Positions 11,468-54,217 are shown, counted from the first letter of the stretch. The stretch is 64,000 nucleotides of DNA from a virus (IMGVR_UViG_3300027976_000006:64001-128000), one strand, 5' to 3'. Numbers and translations: made by a program. Notes: a model not told the origin generated them from the letters alone.

Positions 11468-11953
11468 ATGCACATAGATAAGTCGCACAACTACGATCAG
11501 AGGCAACAAAAACCTTTTCGGCACCAGCAAAAAGGTGGCGGGAAAGCGAGTTACGTTATGCCAGCTAAGACTATTCCTAAGATTTCCGTAGATTCGGCGT
11601 TTGCAGGGGCATGGCCCGTGTCCTTGCAAGTAAGCCGGCGTAGGCAGCAGATCATTCTGAGCGATATGAGTTCACACCCGTTGGCTGACCTTTGCTGCGG
11701 GCAATGGGAATGTGTTTTAAATCCGGAATTTAACTCTTTGTTTTTAAGCCCAGCAAAAGGTCAGAACAGGTTCTTACGCTACTGGGCAAAGAAGTTTGGT
11801 ATGCTGGGTCATACTCATTGCTTGGCGGTGCAACTGCCCAAGTCCCAAGTGATACTGTATCGCCCCGTGTGTGTGCAGGCAGATGGTGACCGTATTTGTT
11901 TTCAGTACTTAAACCGAGTTCCTAGTTTAACCAAGGTTGCCAATGCTGGATAA
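11468..11953 (+). CDS. hypothetical protein
   Basis: 161 aa ORF. Confidence 0.5.
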   Translation: MHIDKSHNYDQRQQKPFRHQQKGGGKASYVMPAKTIPKISVDSAFAGAWPVSLQVSRRRQQIILSDMSSHPLADLCCGQWECVLNPEFNSLFLSPAKGQNRFLRYWAKKFGMLGHTHCLAVQLPKSQVILYRPVCVQADGDRICFQYLNRVPSLTKVANAG

Positions 11954-13517
11954 TATTGCAAAACTGCGTTTGATGCTGTTAGGGCGAAAAACAGCTTCAG
12001 CAGCCACTGGTTTTGAGCAGATAGATTCCTTGGCCAAATTAGCCGTAGATGCCATAACTCGACAAAAAATTAATAAAATAAACAGCTACGCTTGCCAAAC
12101 TCCACAAACAAAACTTGCTGGGGCTACTTGGCGTACTCCTGAGAATCTTGCGAAGATTCTCAGACAGGCGTGGGGGTCGTCATCACCCGTTGTGGGCGAT
12201 ATGACCCAAGGTTTCAACAGAAACCAAGTTTTACAGGCAATTTCTGACCGTTTTGGGATGGGTAAGACCATAGCAAAAGGCTATCAAGATTTTACGGATA
12301 AGTTGAATTGGAGACCGCTACCTGAAAAGATCCAAAACAGCGTTTTGAAGACAATATTTGATCAGGCTACACCTAAATACATATTCAGAGGTACTACCCC
12401 AGGTAAAAACATAAATAACCCCTTTGCGGTCGACAACGCTGGGCTTGCAGCTAATTTCGTGCACGGTTCGCCTAGCCCTTTTATTTCAGATTACTATGCC
12501 AAACAATTTGGGGGTGGTAGGGCATTTCAAATGTTCAAGCCTACCAGAGCTCAAGGGTATATGCCCGACTTTCGCGCTCAGTACTATATTGATAAGAATA
12601 CTGGAACTTTAAAGGAAGATATAAAAAACCGTACATGGGCCAAGATATCTCCGGATTTTAAAACCAATATGAGCACGGAAGACTTCTTGCACCCAGGTAT
12701 GCTTAACAAGGAGGAATTAGCACATAAGGCTATTGGGCAAACTGTTTACGAAACACCAGTTATGCCGGCTAATAAGGTTTTTGGCACATTCTTGGCTAGA
12801 AGAAAATCGCAACAATATCATCCCGGAGTACAAAACTTTGACTACATGCCGTCTTTTCCGCGAGCTAGGGCATCCGATATACTTAAGTATACTGAGATAG
12901 CTAGCGTTCCAAACCATCTTAATAATAAGTTTGTTCAAATGAGTTTAGAAAAGCAAAGAAAGCTACCTACAGATTCATCAGGGAGGCTGCTCGCATCACC
13001 TATTCCTAAGCCACCTATTGCTGCGCCACCTATTGCCGCACCACCTATTGCCGCACCACCTATTCCTAAGCCACCTAATGCTGCGCCACCTATTGCTGCG
13101 CCACCTATTGCTGCTCATGCCCCAAATACGCTAGGGACTGCAGGGGACTACCCAGTACCACCTACCGGATTTTTAGCTAGTATGCAACAGTATCTACTTA
13201 GCTTCATGGGTGGTGGTGTTAAGCAAGGAAGTACAGCTTGGGTTAGAGCATTCCGAGCTGGAAAACTAAGTCCTGAATCTTTAGGGCGCATAGCGGCAAG
13301 GTTACCCGAAGGTACTAACCGTTTTGTTAGACCTCTTGGCAAAGGTATAAATATGCAGGCTGACCTAATGGTTGGCAACCTTGGCGGACAAGTTGGACAA
13401 GTTGTTCGTAAGCTGCCCATCCACGCAATTCCTCCAAAGGCGCTTGCTGCGGAAGCAGGCAACCTTCAACTGGCTCAGACTATTATTTCAAAGTTGTTGA
13501 AAGGGAGTAACAAATGA
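11937..13517 (+). CDS. putative virion polyprotein: ADP-ribosyltransferase-like domain, PPIAA repeats, kinase N-lobe-like stub
   Basis: YIFRG...HGSPSPFISDYYA...VYETP (R-S-E-like); LGKGINMQADL..VVRK; KTA/KLA/KQG motifs. Confidence 0.5.
   Translation: MPMLDNIAKLRLMLLGRKTASAATGFEQIDSLAKLAVDAITRQKINKINSYACQTPQTKLAGATWRTPENLAKILRQAWGSSSPVVGDMTQGFNRNQVLQAISDRFGMGKTIAKGYQDFTDKLNWRPLPEKIQNSVLKTIFDQATPKYIFRGTTPGKNINNPFAVDNAGLAANFVHGSPSPFISDYYAKQFGGGRAFQMFKPTRAQGYMPDFRAQYYIDKNTGTLKEDIKNRTWAKISPDFKTNMSTEDFLHPGMLNKEELAHKAIGQTVYETPVMPANKVFGTFLARRKSQQYHPGVQNFDYMPSFPRARASDILKYTEIASVPNHLNNKFVQMSLEKQRKLPTDSSGRLLASPIPKPPIAAPPIAAPPIAAPPIPKPPNAAPPIAAPPIAAHAPNTLGTAGDYPVPPTGFLASMQQYLLSFMGGGVKQGSTAWVRAFRAGKLSPESLGRIAARLPEGTNRFVRPLGKGINMQADLMVGNLGGQVGQVVRKLPIHAIPPKALAAEAGNLQLAQTIISKLLKGSNK
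13001..13116 (+). repeat. 15-bp coding repeat (PPIAA/PPIPK)
   Basis: CCACCTATTGCYGCR units visible. Confidence 0.85.
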
Positions 13518-13769
13518 TAAGACGTGCGACATCTAACAGTATGTCCAACACTTGGGGCACGGGTCTAAGGTATTCCTGTCGCACGCAGTTAAGAATGTGG
13601 TCAAAAGTATTTAGTGACAGCCACTCGGCGTCAAGAGCATCACATTACAGGTACAACTCGCTAAGTTGGAAATCCGATGTAGTTTTGTCAAAGTAACGAG
13701 CTACTGTTGTATTAACTGTTCGTAGTATTTAAACTAAGTTTGTTCGAACTTAACCTTAAGGAGTTTATC

Positions 13770-14558
13770 GTGCACAAACAATCAGGCATTCGTTCCGCTT
13801 TAGTTGGTACTGGTATTGGTGGCGTTCTGGGAGGGCTGCTTGGTCGATTTACTGGCTATAATGCTGGCAATAAAGAAGGGTACAGAAGTGGTAGTGAGTC
13901 CGGCTATAATGCTGGCAATAAAGAAGGGTACAGAAGTGGTAGTGAGTCCGGGGGTAGAGATACCTTGTTAAATCTACTTCGGGGTATGACTGATGTTGTA
14001 GATCAAGGGCGTAGAAGCGATGTAGATTTAAAACAATTGCTTATGCCACTAGAAGGGGGCGCTTCTCCGGCTATGTCCTCAGTAGCGGTTAAAACCGCAA
14101 AACTACGAAGAATGTTTGCCCGCATAGAAAAGAAAGCTGAAGAAAAACAATCAGGCATTCGTTCCGCTTTAGTTGGTACTGGTATTGGTGGCGTTCTGGG
14201 AGGGCTGCTTGGTCGATTTACTGGCTATAATGCTGGCAATAAAGAAGGGTACAGAAGTGGTAGTGAGTCCGGCTATAATGCTGGCAATAAAGAAGGGTAC
14301 AGAAGTGGTAGTGAGTCCGGGGGTAGAGATACCTTGTTAAATCTACTTCGGGGTATGACTGATGTTGTAGATCAAGGGCGTAGAAGCGATGTAGATTTAA
14401 AACAATTGCTTATGCCACTAGAAGGGGGCGCTTCTCCGGCTATGTCCTCAGTAGCGGTTAAAACCGCAAAACTACGAAGAATGTTTGCCCGCATAGAAAA
14501 ACAAGCTATTGCTAGTTTAAGCAGAAAGTTATTTGGGCCTGACAGATACGGCGCATAA
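13770..14558 (+). CDS. tandemly duplicated glycine-zipper head/ejection protein
   Basis: AAGGAG then GTG at 13770; two identical 123-aa units bounded by KQS/KTA/KKA/KQA. Confidence 0.7.
   Translation: MHKQSGIRSALVGTGIGGVLGGLLGRFTGYNAGNKEGYRSGSESGYNAGNKEGYRSGSESGGRDTLLNLLRGMTDVVDQGRRSDVDLKQLLMPLEGGASPAMSSVAVKTAKLRRMFARIEKKAEEKQSGIRSALVGTGIGGVLGGLLGRFTGYNAGNKEGYRSGSESGYNAGNKEGYRSGSESGGRDTLLNLLRGMTDVVDQGRRSDVDLKQLLMPLEGGASPAMSSVAVKTAKLRRMFARIEKQAIASLSRKLFGPDRYGA
13776..14500 (+). repeat. 369-bp-period direct duplication with nested 48-bp tandem repeat
   Basis: 13776-14131 matches 14145-14500; inner repeat 13854-13901/13902-13949. Confidence 0.95.
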
Positions 14559-14757
14559 TTTCATCTTGGCTTACAGAGATGGGGCGACCAAGTGGCAGTT
14601 TAGAACAATATTCAAATAAGTGGAATGAAATTGCACCAAGCACATATCAGCCTTTCCCAGCTTCGCCTAGCTGGCGAAGCCCATAACCAGCTGCGATTGC
14701 CAAACAGAGTAAATAAAGTTAGAGTATCAGTTACCTTTATAATTTCTGGGGAGCACT

Positions 14758-17700
14758 ATGTACGAGTACACGGAAAAAGCGGGCGATGCTGCAGCTAAGA
14801 CTGAGAAGACAGCGGCATTAGAAGATACGAAACTCGGCATACCGATTAGTGCTGCAATCGCGGGTGGACTGGGTGGAGGGCTTTACGGAGGGCTTAAAGG
14901 TTTAATATCTCCCGGCGAATATGAAACGACAGACGAGGAAGGGCAGAAGGTTAAAAAAAAGCGTAATAGGCTAATAGCAGCTTTACAAGGTTCTTTGTAC
15001 TCTGGTGCTTTGGGGGCCGGAGCTGGGGCGTTAGGTGGGACGGCGTTTAATGCGGCCACTTCCGCCGACCCACAAAGAACTCCTTACACCGATGCTTACC
15101 GCAGTCTGCTTGTAGGTCAGGGCTTGGCTAACAATTATAAGTCGGCAGAGGCGGGACAAGACAGCAAACCTTCAGCAATGTCTTACATTCCCGGGATTGG
15201 CGGATTCCTTAGCGGAATAGCTAATCCTATGGTTCGCAAAAGTGATATAGGTATAGATTCCCTTGCAGGTATTCTGAAACCCATAGCGGCACCCATAGCG
15301 GCAGTGAATGAAGGCGTGGCTGGATTAATTGGGGGTATGGCAGGCGGCTTAGGTGGTGGCATGATTGGCCGTTTAGGGGGCAAGGCCCTTAAGACGCTTT
15401 TAAGTAAGCTTACAAAAAATTCGCTAAAGCCGACTGTGCTTACGAAGCTTAATCCAGGCGAATTCCGAAGTATACCGAGAGTGCCAACTGGTGCGGCGGA
15501 AGGGGTTCACAAATTAGTTGATAAATTTGACGATAATTCCGGTATCCTTGGGTTCCTTGGTGGAGCTTCTTTGGGTACACATGGCGGTGCCAGTGCTTAC
15601 CGCAGTCTGAAGGACTGGGCTATCAATTACGCGGATAAACTAAAACCTAAACTTGAGGATACGATTACAATGCCTGAGAAAATTGCAGAATGGGCTTCAG
15701 CTCCTAGCTTTTCGGCTAATGTGCCATTACCGCAGAAACTTAATCCGCTGGTTGCCGGTAGAAAATCATCAACAACCAAAGCGGACGCTAATGGAGTTCG
15801 AGAAGCACTTGCCAAGCTTGGTGCGTATGACAGCGCTTCACTTGCTGTTTCGGCAGCCGGGGATAGCAAAGGGTCTAAATATAAACAACAAGATGAAGAT
15901 CACGCAACTGGTGCAGCTGCGTTTGATTCGCTTGATAAGTATCGAAGGATGACTAAGAAAGCAGGCATGACTCAGTTCCAGACTAAATTCTTTGAACGCT
16001 TTATTTTAGAAGGTAAAAGTGCACAACAGCTACAAGCTGTGGTTAAGCAAGCAGGAGAACAGTTTGGATCTAAGATAGGTAAAGAATTAGCACGTGGGTT
16101 TAAAAAGCTTGCTTCTGCGGGGTTAGCCGGTGCCCGCTGGTTTGCTCGGGCTACCGGCAGCCCGACCGGTGCGGCTGCGCAGCGCCCAAGCCAGCAAGGA
16201 CTCCCTTCAGCTGGCGGGTTTGGCTTTTCTCAACTTCCGGCAGCGATGACTAATTTTGGTAAGCGGGTTGGAGAAGCATTCCCCGGATCAAAAGACTACA
16301 TGGGCATGGGGGGTGCTGCGTTTGATGGTGTTAAAGGAGCGTTACCTGGAATGGGCCAACAGCTTCAACAAGCAGCAACCAAAGGAGTAGAAGGCTGGGT
16401 TAAGCAACCCGGTGTCTTTACTAACCCTGCGGAAGTATGGAGGCGTAGAAACCAAGCTCAAGGTGTTCAGAAGACTTTAGGGGATATAACGACTGGCATG
16501 GGTAAGCTTATGGGCAAGCAGTCTAGTGAAAAGCGAGGGGCTAACTGGGCTGCGCTTGGGAAAGGGGCATTAAAATATATGGGAATGGGTGCGGGAAAAC
16601 CCGGGGCAGAAGTAGCAAATACTTTTAGGCATGCTATGGGCACGGCGGGAACGACTGCAGGAGGTGCAGCTTTAAAAGTATTGAAAAATCCTGTTCTGCA
16701 AGGGCGAGCAGGTACTGGGGCTGTGACTGGTGCAATAAACCCTATGACTGGTTTACTTTCCCAAGATGAAAATAGAAGCTGGGGTGACTATCTTACTAGT
16801 GCGGGTCTTAGCGGCTTAGCTGGTGCTGGTGCAGGTGTTTTAGGGGGCAAAGGCACGCAAAAGATGATGGGGCGTATGCAAGCAGGCGGAAACTTAGGTT
16901 TTATGGGTGATATGGCAGCAGATTTAGCTGGGTATGACACAGGTGGTCGGTTAGGGCAAATTGGATTTTTAGGCGGAGCTGCATTGCCCGCAAAGGTGCC
17001 TCAATGGTTAGGGCAAAAGGCGACACAGATGGGAGGTGGCCGTGTCGGCACGAATATTCCCGGAAGGGCAGGAGACACTGCAAAACTTATGAATAGTGTG
17101 GATTATTTAAGCAAGGGGCAGAACTGGGTACTCGGTAAAGGTAGGCAAGGTGCAGGCTTAGGCTATCAAGCAGCTAAAGCTAATCCGTTGATGGCAGCTG
17201 GTCTAGGTACTGCGGGACTTGGCGGTACCTACGGGTTACACCAACTTGGTAGAGCGGCAGACGCAGCTGAGGGCATGCGTGGTGATGCGAATGCACAGAT
17301 GAGTGCTCTTAGGCAGCAAGTTGCTGGCATGGGTGGCATGGGTGGCATGGGTCAGTTCTTTAATGAAAATAAGCATTGGTTAATGCCTGCGTTGTTAGCT
17401 GGTGGGGGTGCTTTGGCCGGGGGTGCAATGGGTGGTGGTGGTGGTGCTGCACTGGGTGGCCTCGGCTTGCCAGCCCTTTATGCGATGCATCAAAGTGGTA
17501 TGTTTGGCGGCGGAGGCGGCGGAGGCGGCGGAGGCGGCGGAGGCGGAGGCGTTGATCTTTATCGACCTGAGTCAAACGGGGGCCGTGACTTAATACAACT
17601 TCAGTTCCAAAATGCACAAGAAGATACAAATAGACAAATTGTCGCTCGGACAAGAGATCCGAGAATAGCTGTACCTAAAACAGCCAGTGCTAATGCAGTA

Positions 17701-17829
17701 CGGCTTATGCATCGAATAGAAAAGAAAGCCGAAGAAAAGCAAGCTATAGCCGCTCTTGTTAAAGCTTTGTCCGTGAGCGGGGCAAAAGCTTTAATGTCAC
17801 GATTAGAAAGTTACGCAGGGCAACGATGA
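14758..17829 (+). CDS. large Cys-free glycine-zipper-rich internal virion protein
   Basis: 1023 aa, many GxxxG hydrophobic segments, repeated KxA, poly-Gly; C-terminal RIEKKAEEKQAIA shared with ORF 13770. Confidence 0.7.
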   Translation: MYEYTEKAGDAAAKTEKTAALEDTKLGIPISAAIAGGLGGGLYGGLKGLISPGEYETTDEEGQKVKKKRNRLIAALQGSLYSGALGAGAGALGGTAFNAATSADPQRTPYTDAYRSLLVGQGLANNYKSAEAGQDSKPSAMSYIPGIGGFLSGIANPMVRKSDIGIDSLAGILKPIAAPIAAVNEGVAGLIGGMAGGLGGGMIGRLGGKALKTLLSKLTKNSLKPTVLTKLNPGEFRSIPRVPTGAAEGVHKLVDKFDDNSGILGFLGGASLGTHGGASAYRSLKDWAINYADKLKPKLEDTITMPEKIAEWASAPSFSANVPLPQKLNPLVAGRKSSTTKADANGVREALAKLGAYDSASLAVSAAGDSKGSKYKQQDEDHATGAAAFDSLDKYRRMTKKAGMTQFQTKFFERFILEGKSAQQLQAVVKQAGEQFGSKIGKELARGFKKLASAGLAGARWFARATGSPTGAAAQRPSQQGLPSAGGFGFSQLPAAMTNFGKRVGEAFPGSKDYMGMGGAAFDGVKGALPGMGQQLQQAATKGVEGWVKQPGVFTNPAEVWRRRNQAQGVQKTLGDITTGMGKLMGKQSSEKRGANWAALGKGALKYMGMGAGKPGAEVANTFRHAMGTAGTTAGGAALKVLKNPVLQGRAGTGAVTGAINPMTGLLSQDENRSWGDYLTSAGLSGLAGAGAGVLGGKGTQKMMGRMQAGGNLGFMGDMAADLAGYDTGGRLGQIGFLGGAALPAKVPQWLGQKATQMGGGRVGTNIPGRAGDTAKLMNSVDYLSKGQNWVLGKGRQGAGLGYQAAKANPLMAAGLGTAGLGGTYGLHQLGRAADAAEGMRGDANAQMSALRQQVAGMGGMGGMGQFFNENKHWLMPALLAGGGALAGGAMGGGGGAALGGLGLPALYAMHQSGMFGGGGGGGGGGGGGGGVDLYRPESNGGRDLIQLQFQNAQEDTNRQIVARTRDPRIAVPKTASANAVRLMHRIEKKAEEKQAIAALVKALSVSGAKALMSRLESYAGQR

Positions 17830-18897: not shown

Positions 18898-19009
18898 AAT
18901 TTCTGGGATGGGCTCGATTTGTTTAACAGCACGGGTCTGTTGACATAAAGTAATAAGGTTAGTTATTATTAATGTTTGATCATACAAGACAATAACAAGG
19001 AGTAGTGGT

Positions 19010-20140
19010 ATGTCATTAGCAAAAGTAGCCAGTTATTACAGAATTAAAGTGGCTCGTCATTTGATTAATATCGTTTCGTTGCGGCAAGAGCTGGGTACTT
19101 ACAATGTAAACGGGCTGTTAAAAGCTGCGTCTGCGGGGCAGAGCAAAGAAGCTTGTTTGCGCTATGCGGGATTACACACGGCTATACTTTTTGAGCAGCG
19201 AGAGCTGGAGAAGCTCGGAGCAGTGGGCGGGTATAACTCGCAAATGCGAAAAGTGGCCGTTGGCAACTATGGCAGCATACCACCTGGAGGATTCAAAGAT
19301 TACCCGAAGCCAGCAACTCCAGCCCCTGATGCGATAAGAGCACAGGCAAGTAAGCCCGTCTCTAGTTATACACCGGATGCGATAAGAGCACAGGCAAGTA
19401 AGCCCGCACCTAGTTACACGCCTGGGCAAATTGACGATGGTGGTAGGGGTTTTGAGATGGACCGCCTAAATAAGACGGATACAGGCAATCGGCAACAAGC
19501 AGTACTTGACGCAAATCGGGCTGGTCGCCAAAACTTGCCCTCTGGTATGCTAGATCTTAATGCTAATATGCTGGGGAATCACAGCAAACTTCCAGACGCC
19601 CCAACCAGAGGTCAGCTTGCTGATGATGTCGCAGGGACAAGCACAGCAGCTCGGAGGGCAGCAATGGCACAAGCCGGTACAAATGTCGGGGGTGGCTTCC
19701 CTGTAGGCACAAATGGTAGAGTGGCGGGCACAAATGTCGGGGGCGGGCCGGCGGAAGGATTTGCAGCGGCGCAAGCGGCACAAGCGGTGGCAGCTGCCCC
19801 AGCTACATCCGTTCCTGCATCTGTGATTCCTAAGCCGGAGCAGGGCACTGCAAATGCAACGAGTGGATTAGGCTATGATCCGACAGGGTCCGGCAGCGCA
19901 GGAAGGTATTCCGAAACAGCAGACCCCGTAGAGGAGGCTTACACTAGGAGTCTAGGGGCATCGGGTTATGCGGGGCATGTCAGCGACACTGAAACACAAC
20001 CCGAAGCACAACCCGAAGCACAACCCGTGTCACAAGTGCAACAGGGGCGTGGTAGGCGCGGTGGGCGTGGTGGTCCAATACGCAATATGATAGGTAATGT
20101 GCAGCAAGGCCAAGGGCTATTTGGTAGGCGAGGCCGGTAA
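19010..20140 (+). CDS. low-complexity internal virion protein with KxA propeptide
   Basis: KVA/KAA/KLG/KVA in N-terminal ~85 aa; PDAIRAQASKP duplicated; Arg/Gly-rich C-terminus. Confidence 0.65.
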   Translation: MSLAKVASYYRIKVARHLINIVSLRQELGTYNVNGLLKAASAGQSKEACLRYAGLHTAILFEQRELEKLGAVGGYNSQMRKVAVGNYGSIPPGGFKDYPKPATPAPDAIRAQASKPVSSYTPDAIRAQASKPAPSYTPGQIDDGGRGFEMDRLNKTDTGNRQQAVLDANRAGRQNLPSGMLDLNANMLGNHSKLPDAPTRGQLADDVAGTSTAARRAAMAQAGTNVGGGFPVGTNGRVAGTNVGGGPAEGFAAAQAAQAVAAAPATSVPASVIPKPEQGTANATSGLGYDPTGSGSAGRYSETADPVEEAYTRSLGASGYAGHVSDTETQPEAQPEAQPVSQVQQGRGRRGGRGGPIRNMIGNVQQGQGLFGRRGR

Positions 20141-20182
20141 TTAAAATTGAACTTAGCTGATATTTTTATGTTGAGGTGAATT

Positions 20183-20845
20183 ATGTCGAAGTATGCAATG
20201 GAAAAACAAGCTTTTCACGCTAACCGCTTGTCTAGCTTAAACGCAGAAATAGCCCGTTACAACCCAGCCAGTTTGTTGAAGCAAGCGTCAACTTACCCAA
20301 CTACACATAACAAGCAGTTGTGTACTTATTACCTTGCATTAACTAAGCAGGCAGCCTTTGAGAAGAAAGCATTTCTAAAGGCAATTTTAAAAGCTTTGAT
20401 GAAACCAAAGATTAGTCTACTTCCTGCCGCTGGTCTACTGGGGGCATATAGCTACGGGCCAAGTGCAATCAAGGCGACTGGTAGTGCAATTGGTGGTGCT
20501 GCAGATGCTGCTGTGGAAGGAACACAAAATCTTCTACACAGAGCTGGAAGAGGATGGCAAGGGCTGTGGTCAGATCCGACGAGTGATATGTCAAGCAAAG
20601 GTATAAATAAAAAAGTAGAAGAAAGTCTTAAGCCTGTGACTAAACCTACCGGGATACAGCTAGCGCCAAAAACCCGTTGGGTGCAGGTAGACGATGACTC
20701 ATTAAGTCCGGAGCAGAGACGCAGATATTATACTGAGGGTGCCAACACTGGATTTGAAGATTATCAAATTAGCCCAGCAACACGTGGGCAAGTGCCTTAT
20801 AGAAGGCCTCCTACTTATCCTGGGTATTATAGTGGTAATCATTAG
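20183..20845 (+). CDS. internal virion protein with KxA propeptide and hydrophobic segment
   Basis: KYA, KQA x3, KKA; N-terminus resembles ORF 19010. Confidence 0.65.
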   Translation: MSKYAMEKQAFHANRLSSLNAEIARYNPASLLKQASTYPTTHNKQLCTYYLALTKQAAFEKKAFLKAILKALMKPKISLLPAAGLLGAYSYGPSAIKATGSAIGGAADAAVEGTQNLLHRAGRGWQGLWSDPTSDMSSKGINKKVEESLKPVTKPTGIQLAPKTRWVQVDDDSLSPEQRRRYYTEGANTGFEDYQISPATRGQVPYRRPPTYPGYYSGNH

Positions 20846-41955: not shown

Positions 41956-42225
41956 ATGGGGAATAAACCGCTGCTTGGCGGGCTTGACATAAAGTATGCT
42001 GCCGCATATCTGCTGCCCCCATCTACCTCGGAGTTCGGTGAAGATAAAAAGAAAAAGAAAAAGAAAATACAAGCAGAGGACGAGGGTGCTGCTGTGGAGA
42101 AAATGGCAGCCACCTACGGGGATGCCATTGTTGGCGCACGCTTATCCTTGGTTAGACAGCAGATGCGTTCTGGCGATCTAGGCGGCGGGTGGCATCCAGA
42201 TAATCAAATTAATCCGATTAAGTAG
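41956..42225 (+). CDS. small KxA-containing protein with poly-Lys
   Basis: AGGAGG RBS; KYA, K7, KMA. Confidence 0.6.
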   Translation: MGNKPLLGGLDIKYAAAYLLPPSTSEFGEDKKKKKKKIQAEDEGAAVEKMAATYGDAIVGARLSLVRQQMRSGDLGGGWHPDNQINPIK

Positions 42226-45413: not shown

Positions 45414-46436
45414 TTGTTGAAAAGTTACAAGGATGTGCGTCTAGCTGACCCGTTTCTTCGCCCTTACTGGAGGCACGAGCGTGTACTTCGCATGCTTCGC
45501 AGCGTTCCACCGGAGCGTTGTAAACGATTTGATGATCGCTGGATTCAAGAATATAAAAAGTTTTTGTTTTTTTGGAATAAAGGCGAAGCCCAGCGGGAAC
45601 GACTTCTCTATGAAAATCCAGGCTTGTACTTCGCCTATAATTTATACGACAGGCTGGCGATTGAACCCGAGCTGACCTTGATGATTGAAGCCAGGCTGTT
45701 AGCTGGGTCTTCTGTCCAAAGCATTGCTAATGACTGCAAGACCATACCAGAAACCATTGAATGGTACGAACGACTATTTTTTAATGTGTCTGATTTCTTG
45801 ACTCACCACGATTGGATCGTAAAAAATGTATTGTTGCCCGCGTCTGACCGTTTTGTAGAACAACTACCTCCGGACAGTGCTGGGTCAACGCAGCCGGCTA
45901 TGTCTTCTGGGCTAATGCGCACACAATTAGATTTACCTTTGAAATTCTTTGCGTATTTTGGTGGTCCTTTAGTTTGCGATGTCATGATTAGCGGGTTTCG
46001 ACGCAACAATCATGTATTAACCTCAGATAATTTGTCTGAATTTTTTAACAATCAATTTGCACTTCAAGTGCAGCGGCGCAGTGCGCAAGCCGCAGGACAG
46101 TTTGAGGTCAACAAGTATAATGTATTGGAACTTCTTAACACGCATATCAGGTTGATGGAATTGCATAAATCCGGCAAGAGTCAAGAAGTGCGACATAACG
46201 AATTTGAAAAAAATGTAAGTGCAATGATGCTGGAAATTCCTTGGAGTGTAGGTAAAAACGGAGAACAGCTATATCAAGGAACCGCTGTTGGTAGGTACGA
46301 TAAAGGGCCAGTTGAGTTGAATTCAGAAGAAGCTATTTTAATCGCCGCTGGAACTAACTTACCCGTACTGGAACATGACGAAGGTATCGATGTTTACAAA
46401 CGGGGGGAGACGGATACACATGCAACCATTGAATAA
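45414..46436 (+). CDS. hypothetical protein in head module
   Basis: 340 aa ORF. Confidence 0.7.
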   Translation: MLKSYKDVRLADPFLRPYWRHERVLRMLRSVPPERCKRFDDRWIQEYKKFLFFWNKGEAQRERLLYENPGLYFAYNLYDRLAIEPELTLMIEARLLAGSSVQSIANDCKTIPETIEWYERLFFNVSDFLTHHDWIVKNVLLPASDRFVEQLPPDSAGSTQPAMSSGLMRTQLDLPLKFFAYFGGPLVCDVMISGFRRNNHVLTSDNLSEFFNNQFALQVQRRSAQAAGQFEVNKYNVLELLNTHIRLMELHKSGKSQEVRHNEFEKNVSAMMLEIPWSVGKNGEQLYQGTAVGRYDKGPVELNSEEAILIAAGTNLPVLEHDEGIDVYKRGETDTHATIE

Positions 46437-47799
46437 GGCAGATGAACAGCAGCTACTAGCTGGCGTAAAAAAGGCTGTGGACTTGGTTGATAACCAAAAC
46501 ATAGATCCTACCGATGCCATGTATCAAGTAGCAAAATCTATGCAGTTTTCTCCCGGATTTTTAAAAGCAGCTTGCAACGCTTTTAACACAGGGAGACAGC
46601 TCGCCCAGTGGAACGCTAATGATTCTGCGCTGGATAAGCTGGCTAGTTTTACTTTGGCAGATTACTCGACAGTACACGACAGAATCTGGGGACAAAAAGT
46701 AGAAAAAGTTGCTTCAGTATCTAATTTTTTACCTGTCTTTGATTCTTACGAAGAACAAGCAAGACAGCAGTTTCTCCGCGCGGATTTAACTACGCTGGAA
46801 AAATCGGCAGCTGAAGTGCAACAGCACCCGTTAGCGCTGGAAGAGTACGCTGGAAACAAAGTCACAAAAAACTACTCAAACTACGACTATTGCCGGCGTA
46901 TGGCCGAAGAAGCTAGGCGAGAAAAATCAGCAAACGAAGACAGATTAAACCTTAAGCTACATCTGCTGGAAAATTATTTCCGTAAGTTTGCCCAGGATCG
47001 GGTGCCGTTGGCACAAGTAGAACATGCTGTTTCAGTTTGTCGTGGCGCGGTGGGTAAGACACTTATGGACCACGTGGCGGGGAAATTTCAAAAAGAAAAA
47101 AGAGCAGCAGATCACAAAGCTAGCTGGGTAGGTTTTCAGCAAGAAGTCGACTGGAAAAAAGAACCTTACACATTAATCGATGCCACAATAAAACAAGCTA
47201 GAGATTACTACAAGTCTGCGCTGGCACTGCAAAATCTAGAGATTAAAGCGGCAGAAGCTAAAGAAATTACTACTTCTTTTTATCGCCCTTATGTACCCAG
47301 CTATCCGGATAGCCGGCCTCCTTCTGTTAATCTTATGGAAGAAAAACGAGGGGCGGCACTTGCAAGCGGATTAGGGGGAGGACTAGGATTAGGATTAGCA
47401 AGCAGCATCGCTGGTTTGGCACGGGATTCCCACGACAAACTAGTAGACAAACAAATAAGGGAGTTAGATGCCCCTGACCATTTAAACGAGTTGCGAAAAA
47501 TCAGGGCACAGACGGTACTCACTCAACTAATGAGTGATCCTGAAAATCCTTTAAGCCAATACGATCCAGAGGAAGTACTGGGTAAATACAATGAAATGGT
47601 GCAATTATCCCCAAGACTTGCAGATCAATCTGCAAGCATTGGACCTTTGTTAAACAAACGAATGCTTGGTAATACGGAACCTTTTGAAATTTCTGAGCTG
47701 TTGAAAATGGAAGAAAGTGCCAAGAAAACTCAGACTTCACCTTCTCGTGACGATAACCAAATAGGAAACGCGCAAAATGGCAGCATTATCGCTAAGTAG
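46420..47799 (+). CDS. helical inner-head protein with many KxA sites and a Cys-free glycine-zipper C-terminal module
   Basis: KLA, KVA, KSA, KFA, KRA, KQA, KRG; GGAG RBS before ATG 46420. Confidence 0.6.
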   Translation: MQPLNKADEQQLLAGVKKAVDLVDNQNIDPTDAMYQVAKSMQFSPGFLKAACNAFNTGRQLAQWNANDSALDKLASFTLADYSTVHDRIWGQKVEKVASVSNFLPVFDSYEEQARQQFLRADLTTLEKSAAEVQQHPLALEEYAGNKVTKNYSNYDYCRRMAEEARREKSANEDRLNLKLHLLENYFRKFAQDRVPLAQVEHAVSVCRGAVGKTLMDHVAGKFQKEKRAADHKASWVGFQQEVDWKKEPYTLIDATIKQARDYYKSALALQNLEIKAAEAKEITTSFYRPYVPSYPDSRPPSVNLMEEKRGAALASGLGGGLGLGLASSIAGLARDSHDKLVDKQIRELDAPDHLNELRKIRAQTVLTQLMSDPENPLSQYDPEEVLGKYNEMVQLSPRLADQSASIGPLLNKRMLGNTEPFEISELLKMEESAKKTQTSPSRDDNQIGNAQNGSIIAK

Positions 47800-48898
47800 T
47801 ATTACTTATGAGCAAGGGTTGCAGTTACTGGCGGCTCGAAAGCAGGCTTTTGACTCGGGGCGTATCCGTCGTATGTCTAAAGAGGCAATGGCTACTTCCT
47901 TTTATTTGCGCGACATCGGTACAGATTTTTTAGGGAAGGTAGCAGAATCTGGTTTGCTCGATTCTTTAAAATCCGGATTTGGAAGTTTAGGATCTATGGA
48001 TGCTTCTACGCGTAATGTGCTGTTATCGGGGTTAGCCGGTGCTGGCGTTGGGGCAGGCACAAATGCGGCATCCTCCCTACTGAAAGGCGAAGAAGGGGTA
48101 GGCTGGAAAGCGTTAACTGGTGGGTTGGCCGGTGGGGCTGTTGGGGGCGGGATTGGTTTGGCGCTTAACCCGGATATACTAAGCAAATTTGTTGACAAAA
48201 ATCAAAACGGGCCACCCGATTCTACCCCTCCAAATAGAAATTCGCAAGTAGCTGCGGCTATAAAAAGCAGATCCCCAGCAGAACAGTTAGCGGAAATAGA
48301 CAAGTTACAAGGTGTGGCAGACAGCAGTATGCCAGAAATTAAAAGCTACGCGGCACATGGGGCAAACGTGGCGGCGGGTGGCGCTGCTGGTGCCTATGTG
48401 GCAACTAGAGCTACATATAATCCTGATGACATTGCACATAAGCTACGCACCGAGCTACACATGGCAGACCCTAGCAACACTCACACCTACGAGCGGTTTC
48501 ATCGTGGAATGACAGCCCCAGACCTCGGCGTAATTGACGACGTAGCCCGCGCCAAACTTAGAGATGACATGCTTAAAATGACTCGCGATCAGTTTAGAGA
48601 TGCATATGTGCCTAAATCTCGGTTTGGGCGTATTCCTTCTACTTTTGCGAGTAATTTACATACAGCTGCCCCTAACATGGCTGATGCGATTCTTAAAAAC
48701 AATACTGTAACTGGCGGTATGTTTACTGGTGCGGGCAAAATACGATCGGGCAAGGCAGGTATACTGGCGGCACTAGCCGGACTCGTTGCGGCAGGGGCTG
48801 GGACTATACGCCACAACTACAATCAAAATAATGCAGAACGCAGCAATGCACAAGAAACATTAAAATCGTTAGCTGGTCTTACTAAGCAACAGCAGTAA
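47777..48898 (+). CDS. Cys-free glycine-zipper virion/ejection protein
   Basis: KVA then GLAGAGVGAG, GGLAGGAVGGGIG. Confidence 0.65.
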   Translation: MAALSLSSITYEQGLQLLAARKQAFDSGRIRRMSKEAMATSFYLRDIGTDFLGKVAESGLLDSLKSGFGSLGSMDASTRNVLLSGLAGAGVGAGTNAASSLLKGEEGVGWKALTGGLAGGAVGGGIGLALNPDILSKFVDKNQNGPPDSTPPNRNSQVAAAIKSRSPAEQLAEIDKLQGVADSSMPEIKSYAAHGANVAAGGAAGAYVATRATYNPDDIAHKLRTELHMADPSNTHTYERFHRGMTAPDLGVIDDVARAKLRDDMLKMTRDQFRDAYVPKSRFGRIPSTFASNLHTAAPNMADAILKNNTVTGGMFTGAGKIRSGKAGILAALAGLVAAGAGTIRHNYNQNNAERSNAQETLKSLAGLTKQQQ

Positions 48899-48910: not shown

Positions 48911-50389
48911 ATGGCGTTAATTAAACTTGTTTCTCCTGCTGGTTGGGACTTTGATCAGCAAATTGTTTCTCCGATTAAAGTGAGTAGCCGTGGATTGATT
49001 GGTAACGATCGTCAAGAGTTTTTAAAACGGGCTAGTCATTCTTTTTTGGACCAGTTAGATAATGTTAAATTTGCCTCAGACGAAGTTCCTGTGCATTTAA
49101 TCGCATTAGGTGCAAGTGAAGCTTATGGCCCCAATAGAAACGGTGATGGGTTTAAAGAAGCCACTTGTCGCGAGCATCATGACACCTTTGTTAAATTTGC
49201 CAAATTTTTTCGCAATCATAAAAACAAGGCCGAGCGAGGCGATCCTTTCTATGGTGTGGTTAAAGCTTCTGCTTATAACGAAGATATGCGACGGGTAGAA
49301 TTGCTTTGTGCTTTAAACGCAAGCAAAGCAGCCGCGGATCGGAATGGTGGTTTTATTGCAGATACCGAGTTAGAAAAGATTGCGAAAGGCGAAGACATAG
49401 GCGTAAGCATGGCGTGCCGTGTTTCCCATGACGTTTGTTCTTTTTGCAAGCACGCAGCTAAAACACGAGACGAATACTGTACAAGAGAAAAGTGTGCAGC
49501 GGGTGGGTGCAAGGAAAATCTCACTAAGCTAGTAAAAGTCGGTAATGATGTGCATCATTTGCATGTCGACAATCCCAACCCAGTTTGGTTTGACATCAGC
49601 CGAGTTTTTCGCCCCGCGGATCGTATTGCTTATGGCACCCGTGCAGATTACCTAACCAAAGCAGCCGCAGATTCCGGCATATTCGAACTGCAGGATTACA
49701 TCAAATTAGCTTCGGCTTCTACTGCTCCTCTGGCTGTCATTTTGTACCAAGCGGGGCACCACGGTTTATGGTCGGAAAAAAATACTGCCCAAGTTAAATT
49801 AGGATATGGGCTTGCTGCTCTTGAAAAATTTGCAGAAATGCTGGATGCTAATACTTACCGAGCCGTAGTAACCTCTGCTTTTCCTATAGAAAGGCTGGCA
49901 AAATTAGGTTCGGCACACTGTGATAAGCAGTTAGCCGCGTTGGCAGATAATAAAATATTTTTAACATTGTATGATTATGCACGATTGGCAGGACAAGAAA
50001 AGTACATGAAAGCTGCAGCCGCGATACTCCCCGAAATATATACGCTAATGGCCGAGGATGAATCCTTGCCTTTAGCAATTGAGCGCGGGGTCGGCTCAAT
50101 TGGCGATAAAACAGCTAATGAAAGTGCTAGGGCGTTTGCTGCCACGTTGACGGCGAGTCATTCGTTTCACCGAGTGGCAGCGGAAGACCGAAACCTTTTG
50201 AGCTGTATACGTGGGCAGGCTGCTCCTACGATCTGGCAAAAGGCAGCTGCATATAATTTGGAAGGCGAAAGCCTAGCCAAGGAGTATGCAATGTATAAGC
50301 TAGCAGGGTTATGGCGATTGGCTGCACTAGACAACGACTTTACTTCAACAGTCAAGTTAAGTCTTAAGCAGAATAGAATATTTAACTAG
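48911..50389 (+). CDS. prohead maturation protease (HK97/assemblin fold) with KxA-rich C-terminal region
   Basis: NRNGDGF, FFRNH (His), GVSMAC (Ser), CSFC insert, FDISRV..PAD; upstream of scaffold and capsid genes. Confidence 0.7.
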   Translation: MALIKLVSPAGWDFDQQIVSPIKVSSRGLIGNDRQEFLKRASHSFLDQLDNVKFASDEVPVHLIALGASEAYGPNRNGDGFKEATCREHHDTFVKFAKFFRNHKNKAERGDPFYGVVKASAYNEDMRRVELLCALNASKAAADRNGGFIADTELEKIAKGEDIGVSMACRVSHDVCSFCKHAAKTRDEYCTREKCAAGGCKENLTKLVKVGNDVHHLHVDNPNPVWFDISRVFRPADRIAYGTRADYLTKAAADSGIFELQDYIKLASASTAPLAVILYQAGHHGLWSEKNTAQVKLGYGLAALEKFAEMLDANTYRAVVTSAFPIERLAKLGSAHCDKQLAALADNKIFLTLYDYARLAGQEKYMKAAAAILPEIYTLMAEDESLPLAIERGVGSIGDKTANESARAFAATLTASHSFHRVAAEDRNLLSCIRGQAAPTIWQKAAAYNLEGESLAKEYAMYKLAGLWRLAALDNDFTSTVKLSLKQNRIFN

Positions 50390-50429: not shown

Positions 50430-51683
50430 ATGGCGACAACAGTTAAGACTCAAATAGACTCTATTGATCGATTTCTAAAAGCCGTAGGCTATTCTGAAAA
50501 GAATGCCGAGGCGAACACAGAGGCAGGTTCAATTGGTGGAGACACCACCCATCCTATTAAAGATGTGGATGATTCCACAGAAGACGCAACAGAAGGTTTC
50601 CGTTCTACCGAAAACACAGCAGATGTTAAGGCCGACCAAGGTCCTGCTTCTGTTGAAAATGCTAAAAAGGCTGCAGCTAGAAAACGTGCTTCGGTGCGTA
50701 AACGAGCCGATGAACACGATCCTAACGGGTCGGCCTCGGATGATCAAATACAGATTGGTACTAACAAAAAACCAACAGGGGAAGATCCTTCAGTGGAAAC
50801 TTCCTCAGTAAAATCAGAAAAAGAAGATACCGACACGGCACATCCGGCTAGCACTGACAATAGTGAATTAGACGGCAACAAGTATGCCTCTATGTCAACG
50901 GCACAGCTTTACAAGATTTCAAATGATCTTGGGAATCGTGTTCTTGTTGCGCTGACAAAATTTGCCGACAAGGCCGATTTTATGGATGATGACGACTCTG
51001 ACCGCAACGACTCTGAATCTGAATCTGACTCTGAAGTCACAGAAGAAAAAGATGCAGTAGACCTTGCTGGGCAAGCTGGTTGGGAACTTGCAGGTTTGTT
51101 AAGCGGTAAGTTTGACAAACGTGCTGCCGACTCGCTTGTATATTCAACTTTAAGCGAAATTATCAAGACTGCTAACGACGATGCAGATAAAGCTGCAGTT
51201 TACTTGCAGAGCTATCACACTGAATTGCGTAAGCAAGCTGAGGGAGAGGAAGAAGCCGCTTTAGCCGCCATGGGCGGTGGTGGCGGTGACGAGGCTGCTT
51301 TAGCACAAGCTATGATGGATGGTGGCGGTATGGGCGATGGCGGTATGGGCGATGTCGGTATGGGCGATGGTGGTGGTGCTGGCGGTATGGGTGACGGCGG
51401 CGGCGACGGTGCTGACGGTGGTGGTGATGTAGAACAATTAGCCGCTATCTTAGATCAACTTGGCATTTCTCCTGAAGAGTTAGAGGCTGCTATGTCTGAG
51501 CATGGCTCCGAAGGTGCTGGTGCTGGGCAGCCAGACGCAATGGCTTCTGCCCCGCCTTCTCCTGATGAAGAACCTAAAATGGAGGTTGAAGCGGCACATA
51601 AACAAGCAGTAGCTAAAAAGGGGGCGGCGTCTAAAAATGTGCGGGATTACATTCAGGAAGTTCTGGAGCGTTCCCGCCGTTAA
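50430..51683 (+). CDS. acidic scaffold/core protein
   Basis: Very acidic, dense KxA, MGDGG repeats, between protease and capsid genes. Confidence 0.6.
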   Translation: MATTVKTQIDSIDRFLKAVGYSEKNAEANTEAGSIGGDTTHPIKDVDDSTEDATEGFRSTENTADVKADQGPASVENAKKAAARKRASVRKRADEHDPNGSASDDQIQIGTNKKPTGEDPSVETSSVKSEKEDTDTAHPASTDNSELDGNKYASMSTAQLYKISNDLGNRVLVALTKFADKADFMDDDDSDRNDSESESDSEVTEEKDAVDLAGQAGWELAGLLSGKFDKRAADSLVYSTLSEIIKTANDDADKAAVYLQSYHTELRKQAEGEEEAALAAMGGGGGDEAALAQAMMDGGGMGDGGMGDVGMGDGGGAGGMGDGGGDGADGGGDVEQLAAILDQLGISPEELEAAMSEHGSEGAGAGQPDAMASAPPSPDEEPKMEVEAAHKQAVAKKGAASKNVRDYIQEVLERSRR

Positions 51684-51725
51684 TTTTTTTTTTTGTTTGA
51701 ATCTTATTTTTGGAGGATTTGCACA

Positions 51726-52166
51726 GTGAACACAAAAACCGCGGCCATGCTTGTCGAATACATTGCCTCTGCCTCGACATTAACCGAACGTTTGTTAAAA
51801 CAAGCACACATACAATATGAACACAACAAGCAGGCTGCCTCCAGGCGGAGTGCTGTTCTTGCTCGACTAGAGCAGACTGGGTGTATTGCCCCGCATCAAA
51901 AACAGGCAGCTGCTGCGATGCTGGATAATCATGCCCATAGTTTAGACTTATTAAGCAATGCCATTGATAAGGTGCAGCAACTTAAAACTGCTGTAGAAAA
52001 AACCGGCACTGACCTCGGACAAGCTGTTTCGGACAGAGAAGCAGGCATTAAGCCCGCTAACAAAGGCCGTAACAGTTTAAATGACCCATATGTGGGCCGA
52101 CGTACTTCTGAAAAGAAGGCATCGGATATAGCGATTTGGGCGGTTATGGACGCCCCTGGTTATTAA
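51726..52166 (+). CDS. small scaffold-like helical protein
   Basis: GGAGG RBS then GTG; KTA, KQA x3, KKA. Confidence 0.55.
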   Translation: MNTKTAAMLVEYIASASTLTERLLKQAHIQYEHNKQAASRRSAVLARLEQTGCIAPHQKQAAAAMLDNHAHSLDLLSNAIDKVQQLKTAVEKTGTDLGQAVSDREAGIKPANKGRNSLNDPYVGRRTSEKKASDIAIWAVMDAPGY

Positions 52167-52220
52167 TTTTAACACTAAAGACTCGTTTGAGTCTTAAACA
52201 CAAGTCTTAGGAGGACGATT

Positions 52221-52751: not shown

Positions 52752-52813
52752 TTTTTAAATATTAACTCAATCTAACCACAAGTTTGATTGATACCACAAG
52801 GAGGTTTTTACGC

Positions 52814-53761
52814 ATGTCTAATTCCAATACTATGACTCAAGAAGAAAGCAAACTTCTTAGTCAGACAATTTTTGAAAAGTTGGCTTCTAGGGACTCTGGT
52901 CTTGAAAAGCAAGCCGTTGACGCCGTTAACGACTTTACTAGAACTAAGATGCGCGAAGATGGATTTTATCGTAGGATTATGCCGCCGATTCCATTAAGCA
53001 ACGATGATCTTGATCGCCAAGTCGATACGGACAAACCTGTAAAGATTGTGGACAAGGAACCTGATAGTCCAGCGGCTATCTCAATTCCTTTTGCCACGCT
53101 TCCCACTAACCTGTACATTCGTGGTGACAGGTACAAAGTTACTTTTGACCGCATCGTGACCCCTAAATTCACGAAAGATGTGGACGAACTTCGTACTTGG
53201 CACATGGACATCCGCCAAATTTTGTCGGACAATGCCATTAAGGATATGCTAGCGGAAGAAGATGGAAAATTTATTTCTGCGGTCAACACCGCTCTAGTTG
53301 GTGCAGAAACAATTGTTCCTACCTCTGGCGTAATCCAGTACAAGCAGCTTGGTGGTGGCGTCACCCGTGGCAACTTGTGGGATAGCTTCAAGATTATGCC
53401 AAGCACGCCTTCTAATCTGGAAGTTCACTCTGTCCTGCTTAATAACATCACGATTAAAGAAGTTGCAAAACTTAATCGTACTGAGATGGGCGGCGACCTT
53501 AGCGAAGAGATTATGCGTAATGGTTGGACTTACAGTGAATTCATGGGAGTTCAGTGGATCATCACAATTAAGAAGGGACTTGTCCCGACTAACACGATGT
53601 ATCATTTCGCAGACCCTAAATTTATTGGCAAGAGCTATATGATAGAAGACACTACGATGTATATCCGTCGTGAAGCGTATTTTATCGAATTTTTTGCCTA
53701 TGAAACTTTGGGTGGCACCATTGGGCATACCTCCGGTCTTGCTCGGGTTGACTTTACCTAA
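52814..53761 (+). CDS. major capsid protein (HK97 fold)
   Basis: AAGGAGG RBS; short leader ending EKQA, then FTRTKMREDGFYRRIMP..EEDGKF; strong terminator follows. Confidence 0.75.
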   Translation: MSNSNTMTQEESKLLSQTIFEKLASRDSGLEKQAVDAVNDFTRTKMREDGFYRRIMPPIPLSNDDLDRQVDTDKPVKIVDKEPDSPAAISIPFATLPTNLYIRGDRYKVTFDRIVTPKFTKDVDELRTWHMDIRQILSDNAIKDMLAEEDGKFISAVNTALVGAETIVPTSGVIQYKQLGGGVTRGNLWDSFKIMPSTPSNLEVHSVLLNNITIKEVAKLNRTEMGGDLSEEIMRNGWTYSEFMGVQWIITIKKGLVPTNTMYHFADPKFIGKSYMIEDTTMYIRREAYFIEFFAYETLGGTIGHTSGLARVDFT

Positions 53762-53769
53762 TCACAAGT

Positions 53770-53807
53770 CTAAGTTAGCCCTGGACTGCTGGGGCTAACT
53801 TAGTTTT
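53770..53807 (+). terminator. terminator after MCP
   Basis: 12-bp stem CTAAGTTAGCCC/GGGCTAACTTAG then TTTT. Confidence 0.75.
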
Positions 53808-53833
53808 AAAATCCAGAATTGGAGTAATGAATT

Positions 53834-54217
53834 ATGTCTAAGCTTCCTAATCCTACTGACGCTTACAACTATTTGTTTAACAAGGTGCATGCTCAAGTAT
53901 TTTTGAACAAATTAGCCAGTTACGGTATTACCCCTAGTACCGAACAGGAAGTTTCAGATTTATTTGAACTTGCCGGACAACTGCGACATATCGAAAGCCC
54001 CGAAAAGCAAGCTGCAGAGGGTAGCCGTTTTGGCTCCGCCGTAGCTGGACTTAACGAGGCTATAAATGCGACCCCTCAAGGTCAATGGCAGCAAGCAGTA
54101 TATGAAGATTCCGCAGTAAAGCAGGCAACTTATGATTTAGCAAATGACCCTGCTATCTATGCTTCCATCCTTTCGTTGAAAGCGCACGAAGCCGCTGTTT
54201 TGGCTGGTAACAGCTAA
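53834..54217 (+). CDS. small head protein with KxA sites
   Basis: KLA, KQA x2. Confidence 0.6.
   Translation: MSKLPNPTDAYNYLFNKVHAQVFLNKLASYGITPSTEQEVSDLFELAGQLRHIESPEKQAAEGSRFGSAVAGLNEAINATPQGQWQQAVYEDSAVKQATYDLANDPAIYASILSLKAHEAAVLAGNS

Follow-up and report, generated by a model that had tools for sequence, protein, structure and literature searches.

To our knowledge, cleavage specificity has been worked out for the prohead proteases of very few phages, and every well-documented enzyme of the gp21 type cuts after Glu. IxE and LxE are the experimentally established motifs of gp21 of bacteriophage T4; the herpesvirus consensus is V/L/I-x-A with cleavage before S, i.e. with a hydrophobic residue at P3. 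T4 gp21 activates itself through a cleavage at its N-terminus (PMC9958956), and in the herpesvirus protease-scaffold precursor a release site in the linker is autocleaved, the C-terminus of the mature protease being an Ala (PMC4498786). The capsid-targeting sequences of T4 are N-terminal and conserved, and the ejection proteins of phage SPN3US (gp47 is an inferred one) carry long propeptides with multiple sites followed by a transmembrane segment (PMC5694885). The present analysis concerns a 64,000-nucleotide stretch of a 156,975-bp virus record (IMGVR_UViG_3300027976_000006, bases 64001-128000; hereafter the window), in which all long open reading frames (ORFs) lie on the + strand and in which a Lys-x-Ala motif (K-x-A) recurs in the head genes. 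ORFs are named by their start coordinate in the window, the major capsid protein (MCP) being ORF 52784 and the predicted protease ORF 48911. An earlier interpretation made from the DNA alone (the sequence-only reading) had proposed that this protease cuts after K-x-A, or its variants K-x-G and K-x-S, and thereby separates Cys-containing propeptides from Cys-free, injected cargo; three of its ORF starts (13770, 46420 and 51726) are internal start codons and are replaced here by 13740, 46375 and 51693.

According to our analysis, the N-terminal domain of ORF 48911 forms a prohead protease that recognizes the motif (L/F)-E-K-(Q)-A with S/A and D behind it; we give this reading a probability of about 0.7. 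K-x-A behaves as a protease motif in view of the invariant site in the MCP leader, the invariant sites of the protease itself, the unstable sites of the scaffold-like proteins, the avoidance of the motif in the mature MCP and the outcome of the same scan in T4. Cleavage itself is inferred from motif statistics, conservation, and the fold and homology of the protease; the cut would most likely fall after the Ala, as judged from the analogy to herpesvirus assemblin and from the preferences for S/A at P1′ and D at P2′. Of the sequence-only reading, the identity of the protease, the behavior of the motif and, in two families, the distribution of Cys were borne out, whereas the variants K-x-G and K-x-S found no support and the subunits of the RNA polymerase (RNAP) turned out to be leaderless.

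In ORFs 11937 to 53834, K-x-A occurred 139 times compared to 83.1 expected (z 6.8), a number that none of 2000 per-protein shuffles reached; the 17 ORFs listed in the sequence-only reading, for which the counts were confirmed, contained 98 sites versus 48.3 expected from shuffling, and the other window ORFs 31 versus 25.3 (not significant), i.e. the motif exceeded composition in the head region only. Over the whole genome, the observed/expected ratio was 0.92 upstream and 0.89 downstream of the region, and 0.81 in the metabolic genes embedded in it. Among all a-x-b pairs of the region ORFs, K-x-A ranked first; Lys and Ala were enriched at offset +2 only, while the spacings 1, 3, 4, 5 and 6 as well as the reverse A-x-K (81 versus 83) were at expectation. 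K-x-G (0.92x), K-x-S (0.91x) and R-x-A were likewise at or below expectation, so the proposed motif variants are unsupported. An artefact of composition or of amphipathic helices was ruled out by the offset profile together with the A-x-K, R-x-A, K-x-G and K-x-S controls; a DNA-level motif was ruled out as well, since codon use at the sites equaled the background, which places K-x-A at the level of the protein. The surroundings of the motif were biased to L/F at P5, E at P4 (31 versus 7.3), Q at P2, S/A at P1′ (z 3.9 and 3.7) and D at P2′, from which the fuller form (L/F)-E-K-(Q)-A, then S/A, then D was derived. None of the ten most enriched pairs of the region ended in E, in disagreement with a Glu at P1 of the T4/phiKZ type; measured against the assemblin type, S and A were enriched at P1′ but P3 is Lys, the Ala being fixed by the definition of the motif and the presumed cut lying behind it. 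Within the first 60 residues, K-x-A was present in 21 of 36 region ORFs (10.8 expected) versus 20 of 112 elsewhere (27.5 expected). The overall excess was carried by approximately 8-10 ORFs (42246, 46375, 48911, 50430, 51693, 19010, 53834, 28475, 13740); ORFs 11937, 14758, 31275, 47777 and 36637 were at expectation and possessed N-terminal sites only.

The same scan applied to T4 gp20, 67, 68, 21, 22, 23 and 24 placed IxE at rank 1 and LxE at rank 3, and at ranks 1 and 2 when the core proteins were analyzed alone; it therefore detects the motif of a prohead protease where one is known. The K-x-A signal of the present region was stronger than the signal of T4's own motif.

For the comparative analyses, 64 IMG/VR contigs (mostly ~155-235 kb) were retrieved with the MCP as query (identity 56-95%). 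A megablast search gave no nucleotide match to phage records, and the cultured relatives are distant: Salmonella phage Arash, the Vibrio phages D69, D181 and D148, and Bacillus phage G (MCP identity to Arash 29%, to D69 29.5%, to phage G 23%). The comparative ratios refer to IMG/VR homologues of <60% identity, which are related sequences and not independent samples. In these homologues, the observed/expected ratio of K-x-A amounted to 2.4x for 42246, 2.6x for 46375, 3.2x for 48911, 2.0x for 50430, 3.65x for 51693 and 3.0x for 53834, while the homologues of 45414, 52221 and the downstream genes were at or below expectation; at eight divergent loci, spacing +2 stood clearly above the remaining spacings. 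K-x-A likewise headed the ranking of pairs in the head modules of Arash (46 versus 21 expected), D69 (51 versus 22.4, with only 4 sites in nine tail/baseplate genes) and, though weakly, phage G (24 versus 13.5). Near-invariant sites within variable surroundings were found in 48911 (K39 and K250, 100%), 46375 (K88, 97%) and 50430 (K230, 94%; K391, 78%), and sites K26 and K58 of 53834 were kept in 78%; for most of the remaining sites, the position was not conserved but the number was maintained. In the L001-L064 homologues of three ORFs, K-x-A was under-represented (58423-61230 (+), 32 versus 89.7; 57660-58391 (+), 13 versus 28.2; 52221-52751 (+), 17 versus 38), a scarcity in non-independent sequences that could reflect avoidance of the protease motif or an effect of a beta-rich composition.

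The MCP (52784..53761, +) was recognized by tblastn, which matched it to the major head protein of phage G and to the "major capsid protein" of Arash (2e-31); translation probably begins at an internal Met around residue 11-17. Its leader site K42-Q-A44 (52907..52915, +) precedes V-D, has K and A in 46/46 distinct homologues, and has a counterpart at the corresponding position of Arash and D69 (K-E-A before G). Over the family, the mature part of the MCP contained 2 K-x-A versus 40.5 expected, a depletion among related sequences and not in 46 independent events. The scaffold-like protein 50430 (50430..51683, +) is Cys-free, acidic, and contains 14 K-x-A versus 4.0 expected; its homologues have on average 9.8 sites versus 4.8 expected, with sites 230 and 391 conserved and the rest turning over. 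The small head-module protein 51693 (51693..52166, +) has 7 sites versus 1.7 expected. The gene order, i.e. protease 48911, the scaffold-like 50430 and 51693, 52221 and the MCP, is the same in Arash, D69 and phage G.

ORF 48911 (48911..50389, +; 492 aa) comprises a protease domain (residues ~16-236), a disordered linker (235-272) and a helical C-terminal domain (273-492). The AlphaFold model, calculated with a 28-homologue alignment, reached a mean predicted local distance difference test score (pLDDT) of 76 and revealed a mixed alpha/beta domain up to residue ~236. Using model residues 16-236, VIA-align listed T4 gp21 (5jbl_A) first (Z 7.0, a moderate value; root-mean-square deviation 4.1 for 144/165 residues), followed 2.6 Z lower by the varicella-zoster virus protease (Z 4.4); the human cytomegalovirus protease was also listed. 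The three best Foldseek rows were gp21 chains as well, at a weak E of 0.23. HHalign matched the 48911 profile to gp19 of Bacillus phage G with 98.9% probability, the motifs G-x-N-x-N-G-D, V-S-M-x-C-R, C-S-x-C-G-N and F-F-(D/E)-I-S being common to both, and gp19 is listed as a head/capsid maturation protease (PMC12484599). By fold, profile and gene position upstream of the scaffold-like genes and the MCP, ORF 48911 is thus predicted to be the prohead protease, as the sequence-only reading had assumed. In the 28 homologues, H62, S166, H90, H103, C176, C179, C190 and C195 are invariant and H218 is nearly so. The four conserved Cys (C-x2-C ... C-x4-C; residues 176-195, 49436-49495) belong to an insertion in the protease domain that is also present in phage G gp19; in sequence it looks zinc-ribbon-like, which would be unusual for gp21-type proteases.

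The protease itself contains 15 K-x-A versus 5.2 expected, and two of these sites are candidates for self-processing. K39-R-A41 (49025..49033, +), the candidate N-terminal activation site, is invariant in 28/28 and 42/42 aligned homologues; K250-A-A252 (49658..49666, +), the candidate release site, is kept in 42/42 homologues although it lies within a linker segment of pLDDT <50 and a flank conservation of 0.16, and the E-K-V-A-S of phage G gp19 aligns with this K-A-A-S site. Alternatively, K-x-A might be recognized and left uncut, acting as a capsid-targeting or scaffold-docking motif, or as a site of Lys modification or cross-linking, that loads proteins into the prohead. The N-terminal, conserved targeting sequences of T4 (PMC5694885) would be in line with this explanation, as would a motif that is centered on Lys and for which binding and cleavage are inseparable by sequence alone. 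We nevertheless regard it as improbable: the targeting leaders of T4 and the phiKZ-like phages end in a protease motif and are removed (PMC5694885), the invariant linker and N-terminal sites of the protease and the dozens of sites in the scaffold-like proteins are more readily explained by clearance than by docking, and a destructive motif would be expected to be avoided by the mature MCP, as is observed.

Several observations weigh against a protease motif. ORF 48911 had no Pfam or PHROG family at E<=0.01, and its profile retrieved no PDB sequence at E<=10; H62 and S166 are, by their conservation, candidates for the counterparts of the gp21 catalytic residues. In the pooled comparison of motif with other residues, conservation was significant for the Ala (p 0.006) but weak for the Lys (p 0.08). 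ORF 13740 has no N-terminal K-x-A, and the mass spectrometry of Arash virions, which was fully tryptic with 100% coverage of many proteins, neither shows nor excludes processing (PMC10585845). The two RNAP subunits, which are the largest presumed cargo, lack an N-terminal K-x-A leader, so the K-x-A code does not explain their packaging. In the low-Cys ORFs of the region, 14 of 25 Cys fell into the first third (p 0.016) versus 29% elsewhere, a modest bias in a single genome. Furthermore, cutting cannot take place at all of the K-x-A sites, many of which are located in predicted helices or within the folded protease domain, and the T4 head proteins have a mild K-x-A excess (25 versus 16.7, 1.5x), which leaves room for a minor component of the signal that is common to helical head proteins in general. 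The last two points would also suit a structural signature of helical or coiled-coil head proteins, i.e. a packing or capping preference that involves no proteolysis: many sites fall into predicted long helices, those within the folded protease domain are conserved, and T4 displays its excess although gp21 cuts after Glu. Such a preference, however, is hardly compatible with an enrichment in one direction and at +2 only, with i+3, i+4 and A-x-K remaining at expectation, nor with the asymmetric context (E at P4, S/A at P1′, D at P2′), the location of the most conserved sites in a disordered linker and at the ends of leaders, the avoidance by the mature MCP, and a number of sites that is maintained while their positions change; in our view, it is an unlikely explanation, if slightly less so than an uncut loading motif.

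If K-x-A is the cleavage motif of the prohead protease, maturation may proceed as follows: Inside the prohead, the protease would activate and release itself at K39-R-A41 and K250-A-A252, remove a leader of ~27-33 residues from the MCP, and chop 50430, 51693 and the N-terminal part of 46375 to small peptides. It would also remove leaders of 13-130 residues from internal proteins whose bodies begin with glycine-zipper, membrane-like segments. Cys would be excluded from the mature internal proteins and the RNAP, the probable reason being that these remain in the virion until their delivery to the host, while the parts cut off before release could tolerate Cys. Ejection of the cargo is inferred from the absence of Cys, the Gly-zippers after the leaders, the abundance of the RNAP subunits in preparations of Arash virions and the example of N4.

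The N-terminal parts of the presumed cargo proteins resemble the protease-removed leaders of T4 and the giant phages in that they terminate at a K-x-A site, and some of them recur in a paralogue or are retained in relatives. In eight proteins (13740, 14758, 20183, 28475, 30464, 31275, 47777 and 46375), N-terminal sites are followed by uncharged glycine-zipper segments, an arrangement reminiscent of SPN3US gp47, in which a transmembrane segment opens the mature part (PMC5694885). ORF 47777 (47777..48898, +) is Cys-free and has leader sites at 22, 35 and 54 ahead of its Gly-zipper segments; ORF 31275 (31275..32075, +), a Cys-free presumed cargo, has a 19-residue leader ending at K17-S-A19, a site kept in 4/5 relatives. 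A 19-residue leader is also found in the Cys-free 14758 (14758..17829, +; 1023 aa), where K17-T-A19 (nt 14806-14814) precedes five Gly-zippers. The small presumed cargo 30464 (30464..30874, +) has C15, K-x-A at 27/30/38 and a hydrophobic Gly-rich segment at 60-82, C15 and K30-x-A being kept in relatives. ORF 28475 (28475..29590, +), presumably cargo as well, consists of a Cys-bearing N-terminal part of ~115 aa, the site K115-x-A117 (nt 28817-28825), and a Cys-free remainder with two Gly-zippers. The ORFs 19010 and 20183 (19010..20845, +) have leaders of ~65-130 aa with 5-7 K-x-A and one Cys each, which are paralogous to each other (phmmer 1e-4); one relative carries a 19010-type leader with 6 K-x-A and no Cys on a different body that begins with a Gly-zipper. 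When five divergent relatives were searched with 19010 and 11937, this single leader was the only homologue to emerge. The region 11937..14558 (+) contains ORF 11937, with K-x-A at 18, 34 and 59 and its sole Cys at 53, and the Cys-free ORF 13740 (13740-14558, +), which contains an internal tandem duplication: an identical 17-residue Gly-zipper (19-35 and 142-158) is each time followed by a K-x-A pair (118/131 and 241/254). ORF 36637 (36637..37389, +) is Cys-free with the leader site K24-Y-A26 and a PPMDP-x-MGGGGA repeat, of which five to six tandem units P-P-M-D-P-(S/Y)-M-G-G-G-G-A follow directly after the leader site. ORF 41956 (41956..42225, +; 89 aa), also without Cys, has K13-Y-A and K49-M-A.

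The partition of Cys between propeptide and cargo, as judged from sequence, is suggestive, with comparative support in two families. The individual statements of the sequence-only reading held: the five ORFs named as Cys-free (14758, 13740, 47777, 31275, 36637) are so, and in 11937, 19010, 20183, 28475, 30464 and 46375 every Cys is N-terminal to a K-x-A. In five relatives, the Cys of the 28475 family occupy different positions (5, 25 / 36, 63, 86, 94 / 18, 31 / 39), all before residue 95 and upstream of a site kept at ~107-115. ORF 46375 (46375..47799, +) is in its model an all-helical two-part protein: a K-x-A-rich N-terminal part of ~290 aa, a disordered Gly-rich segment (326-349) and a C-terminal domain, with 11 K-x-A and all 3 Cys within the first 291 residues and neither in the C-terminal domain; across 36 homologues, K-x-A and Cys are restricted to the N-terminal half, with K88-L-A90 as the site kept in 97%. 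The general form of the claim, Cys-containing propeptides versus Cys-free cargo, finds support in the 28475 and 46375 families, but the scaffold-like 50430 is Cys-free, too, so that the absence of Cys does not mark injected proteins only.

For this part of the interpretation, a general avoidance of Cys in virion proteins or in helical low-complexity proteins, combined with chance placement and without any boundary between propeptide and cargo, is a serious alternative, to which we give somewhat less than even odds. Besides the scaffold-like protein, the MCP lacks Cys; the small ORFs 30054, 30890 and 52221 have a C-terminal Cys, a Cys is found in the body of one homologue of 31275, the RNAP subunits of Arash contain 1 and 4 Cys, and the positional bias within the single genome reaches only the p value given above. 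By contrast, Cys that shift among relatives of 28475 and yet stay upstream of its conserved site, and a C-terminal half of 46375 that is free of Cys in the 36 homologues, speak against chance placement. Moreover, 14758 and the RNAP subunits 32078 and 38245, 3723 aa in total, contain 0 Cys versus ~14, 20 and 16 expected (~50), which holds in 5 relatives. In phage N4, the injected virion RNAP has 0 Cys in 3500 aa, as the sequence-only reading had stated, and gp51 and gp52 also have 0 Cys, whereas other N4 proteins are not Cys-free. The two 759-aa ORFs with 15 Cys each proved unrelated.

The RNAP is encoded in two parts: ORF 32078 (32078..36562, +; 1494 aa) comprises beta and the N-terminal part of beta' (Pfam Rpb2_6 7e-50, Rpb1_2 1e-23), and ORF 38245 (38245..41865, +; 1206 aa) the C-terminal part of beta' (Rpb1_5 1e-18). 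The catalytic domains of beta and beta' are present across both (Rpb2_6, Rpb2_3, Rpb1_1, Rpb1_2, Rpb1_5), and both are Cys-free in the 5 relatives, to which identity is 70-87%. ORF 32078 is 30% identical to Arash gp206 and ORF 38245 26% to Arash gp216; in the mass spectrometry of the Arash virion, a preparation that yielded 116 proteins, gp206 had the highest and gp216 the fifth highest spectrum count (PMC10585845).

Most proteins of the head region had no family in Pfam and PHROGs, which were searched with nearly all of its ORFs. ORF 53834 (53834..54217, +; 127 aa) is Cys-free with 3 K-x-A, two of them being the conserved sites at 26 and 58. The 824-aa head-module protein 42246 (42246..44720, +) has 12 K-x-A versus 4.7 expected, clustered at 148-256 and 565-636. 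It was considered as the portal and rejected: a BLAST comparison with the phage G portal was negative, and the homologue of the annotated Arash portal gp204 is instead the ORF 1834-3756 (+; 25% identity, 4e-52), ~40 kb upstream of the head module, which has 5 Cys and 1 K-x-A versus 2.7 expected. A protein of the Tubulin/FtsZ family is encoded at 6956-8218 (+; Pfam Tubulin 1.4e-10, GGGTGSG motif); judged by its capsid protein, the phage does not belong to the phiKZ-like group. The Tubulin/FtsZ-family protein contains 6 K-x-A versus 1.7 expected, among them sites in an N-terminal extension (18, 55) and a C-terminal tail (396, 399). Outside the window, the highest density of K-x-A apart from the head module was found in a gene at genome positions 18956-20134 (-; L075:960-2135:-; 392 aa; 15 versus 4.1 expected), one of few minus-strand genes, without Pfam match and 88% identical in 7 IMG/VR contigs; its product may serve as a decoy substrate for the protease or represent another scaffold or internal protein. 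The gene at genome positions 130250-135442 (+) encodes a 1730-aa, Cys-free protein (23 Cys expected) with a Met-, Gly- and Gln-rich N-terminus and 17 K-x-A versus 21.7 expected, possibly a tape measure or another delivered protein.

What appears new, as the analysis suggests, is a variant of cleavage specificity, after Ala and not after Glu, of the known prohead-protease mechanism. If true, the processed head and internal proteome would be predictable for a whole, mostly uncultured clade, and a second specificity class that resembles the herpesvirus enzyme would exist within the gp21 fold. The leader, i.e. motif plus propeptide, might be used like the T4 capsid-targeting sequence to direct foreign proteins into capsids. 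Should the Cys partition prove general, it would provide a simple means of recognizing proteins that stay in or leave with the virion. The K-x-A rule is directly testable, as it applies not only to more than 60 related genomes but also to two cultured phages, Arash (Salmonella) and D69 (Vibrio). A broader picture is drawn tentatively: the uncultured ~155-235-kb group, Arash, the D69-like phages and possibly phage G may form a deep clade of large myoviruses whose gp21/assemblin-fold protease, with Lys at P3 and Ala at P1, would link the Glu-specific phage and the Ala-specific herpesvirus enzymes; the motif boundary would then also be the boundary of Cys tolerance, and the delivered proteome (a Zn-less, Cys-free RNAP and Gly-zipper membrane proteins) could be read from the sequence.

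Compared with the known systems, Arash, the D69-like Vibrio phages and Bacillus phage G share the homologous MCP, protease and fusion of RNAP beta with the N-terminal part of beta' as well as K-x-A as top pair of the head module; phage G differs by an MCP without K-x-A leader. The literature on Arash, D69 and phage G yielded no processing or cleavage motif, and nothing on a K-x-A prohead motif was found in the searchable literature. N4 has in common a large, Cys-free RNAP carried in the virion, a location known here only for the Arash homologues, but the N4 enzyme is single-subunit whereas the present one is of the multisubunit type in two polypeptides; we know of no processing by a prohead protease in N4. 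T4 gp21, which recognizes (L/I)-x-E, and phiKZ gp175 and SPN3US gp245, which recognize (S/A/G)-x-E, have the same fold (Z 7.0 to gp21) and the same type of three-residue motif with P3 and P1 specified, and their systems combine self-cleavage, removal of the MCP leader, multi-site degradation of the core and leaders on internal or ejected proteins, as is proposed here. In contrast to them, P1 would be Ala instead of Glu and P3 Lys instead of a hydrophobic or small residue, and 48911, apart from having no Pfam/PHROG match, possesses the four-Cys insertion and a helical C-terminal domain of ~220 aa. The herpesvirus assemblin is related in fold and similar in its layout of protease, linker with release site (a candidate site in 48911) and helical C-terminal part. 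It differs in that the scaffold is a separate gene here, no C-terminus common to protease and scaffold (UL26/UL26.5-like) being found, and in that the host here is bacterial. While the hydrophobic P3 of the herpesvirus consensus is replaced by Lys, preceded by Glu at P4, the P1 Ala and P1′ Ser of assemblin fit the P1′ enrichment observed at the K-x-A sites.

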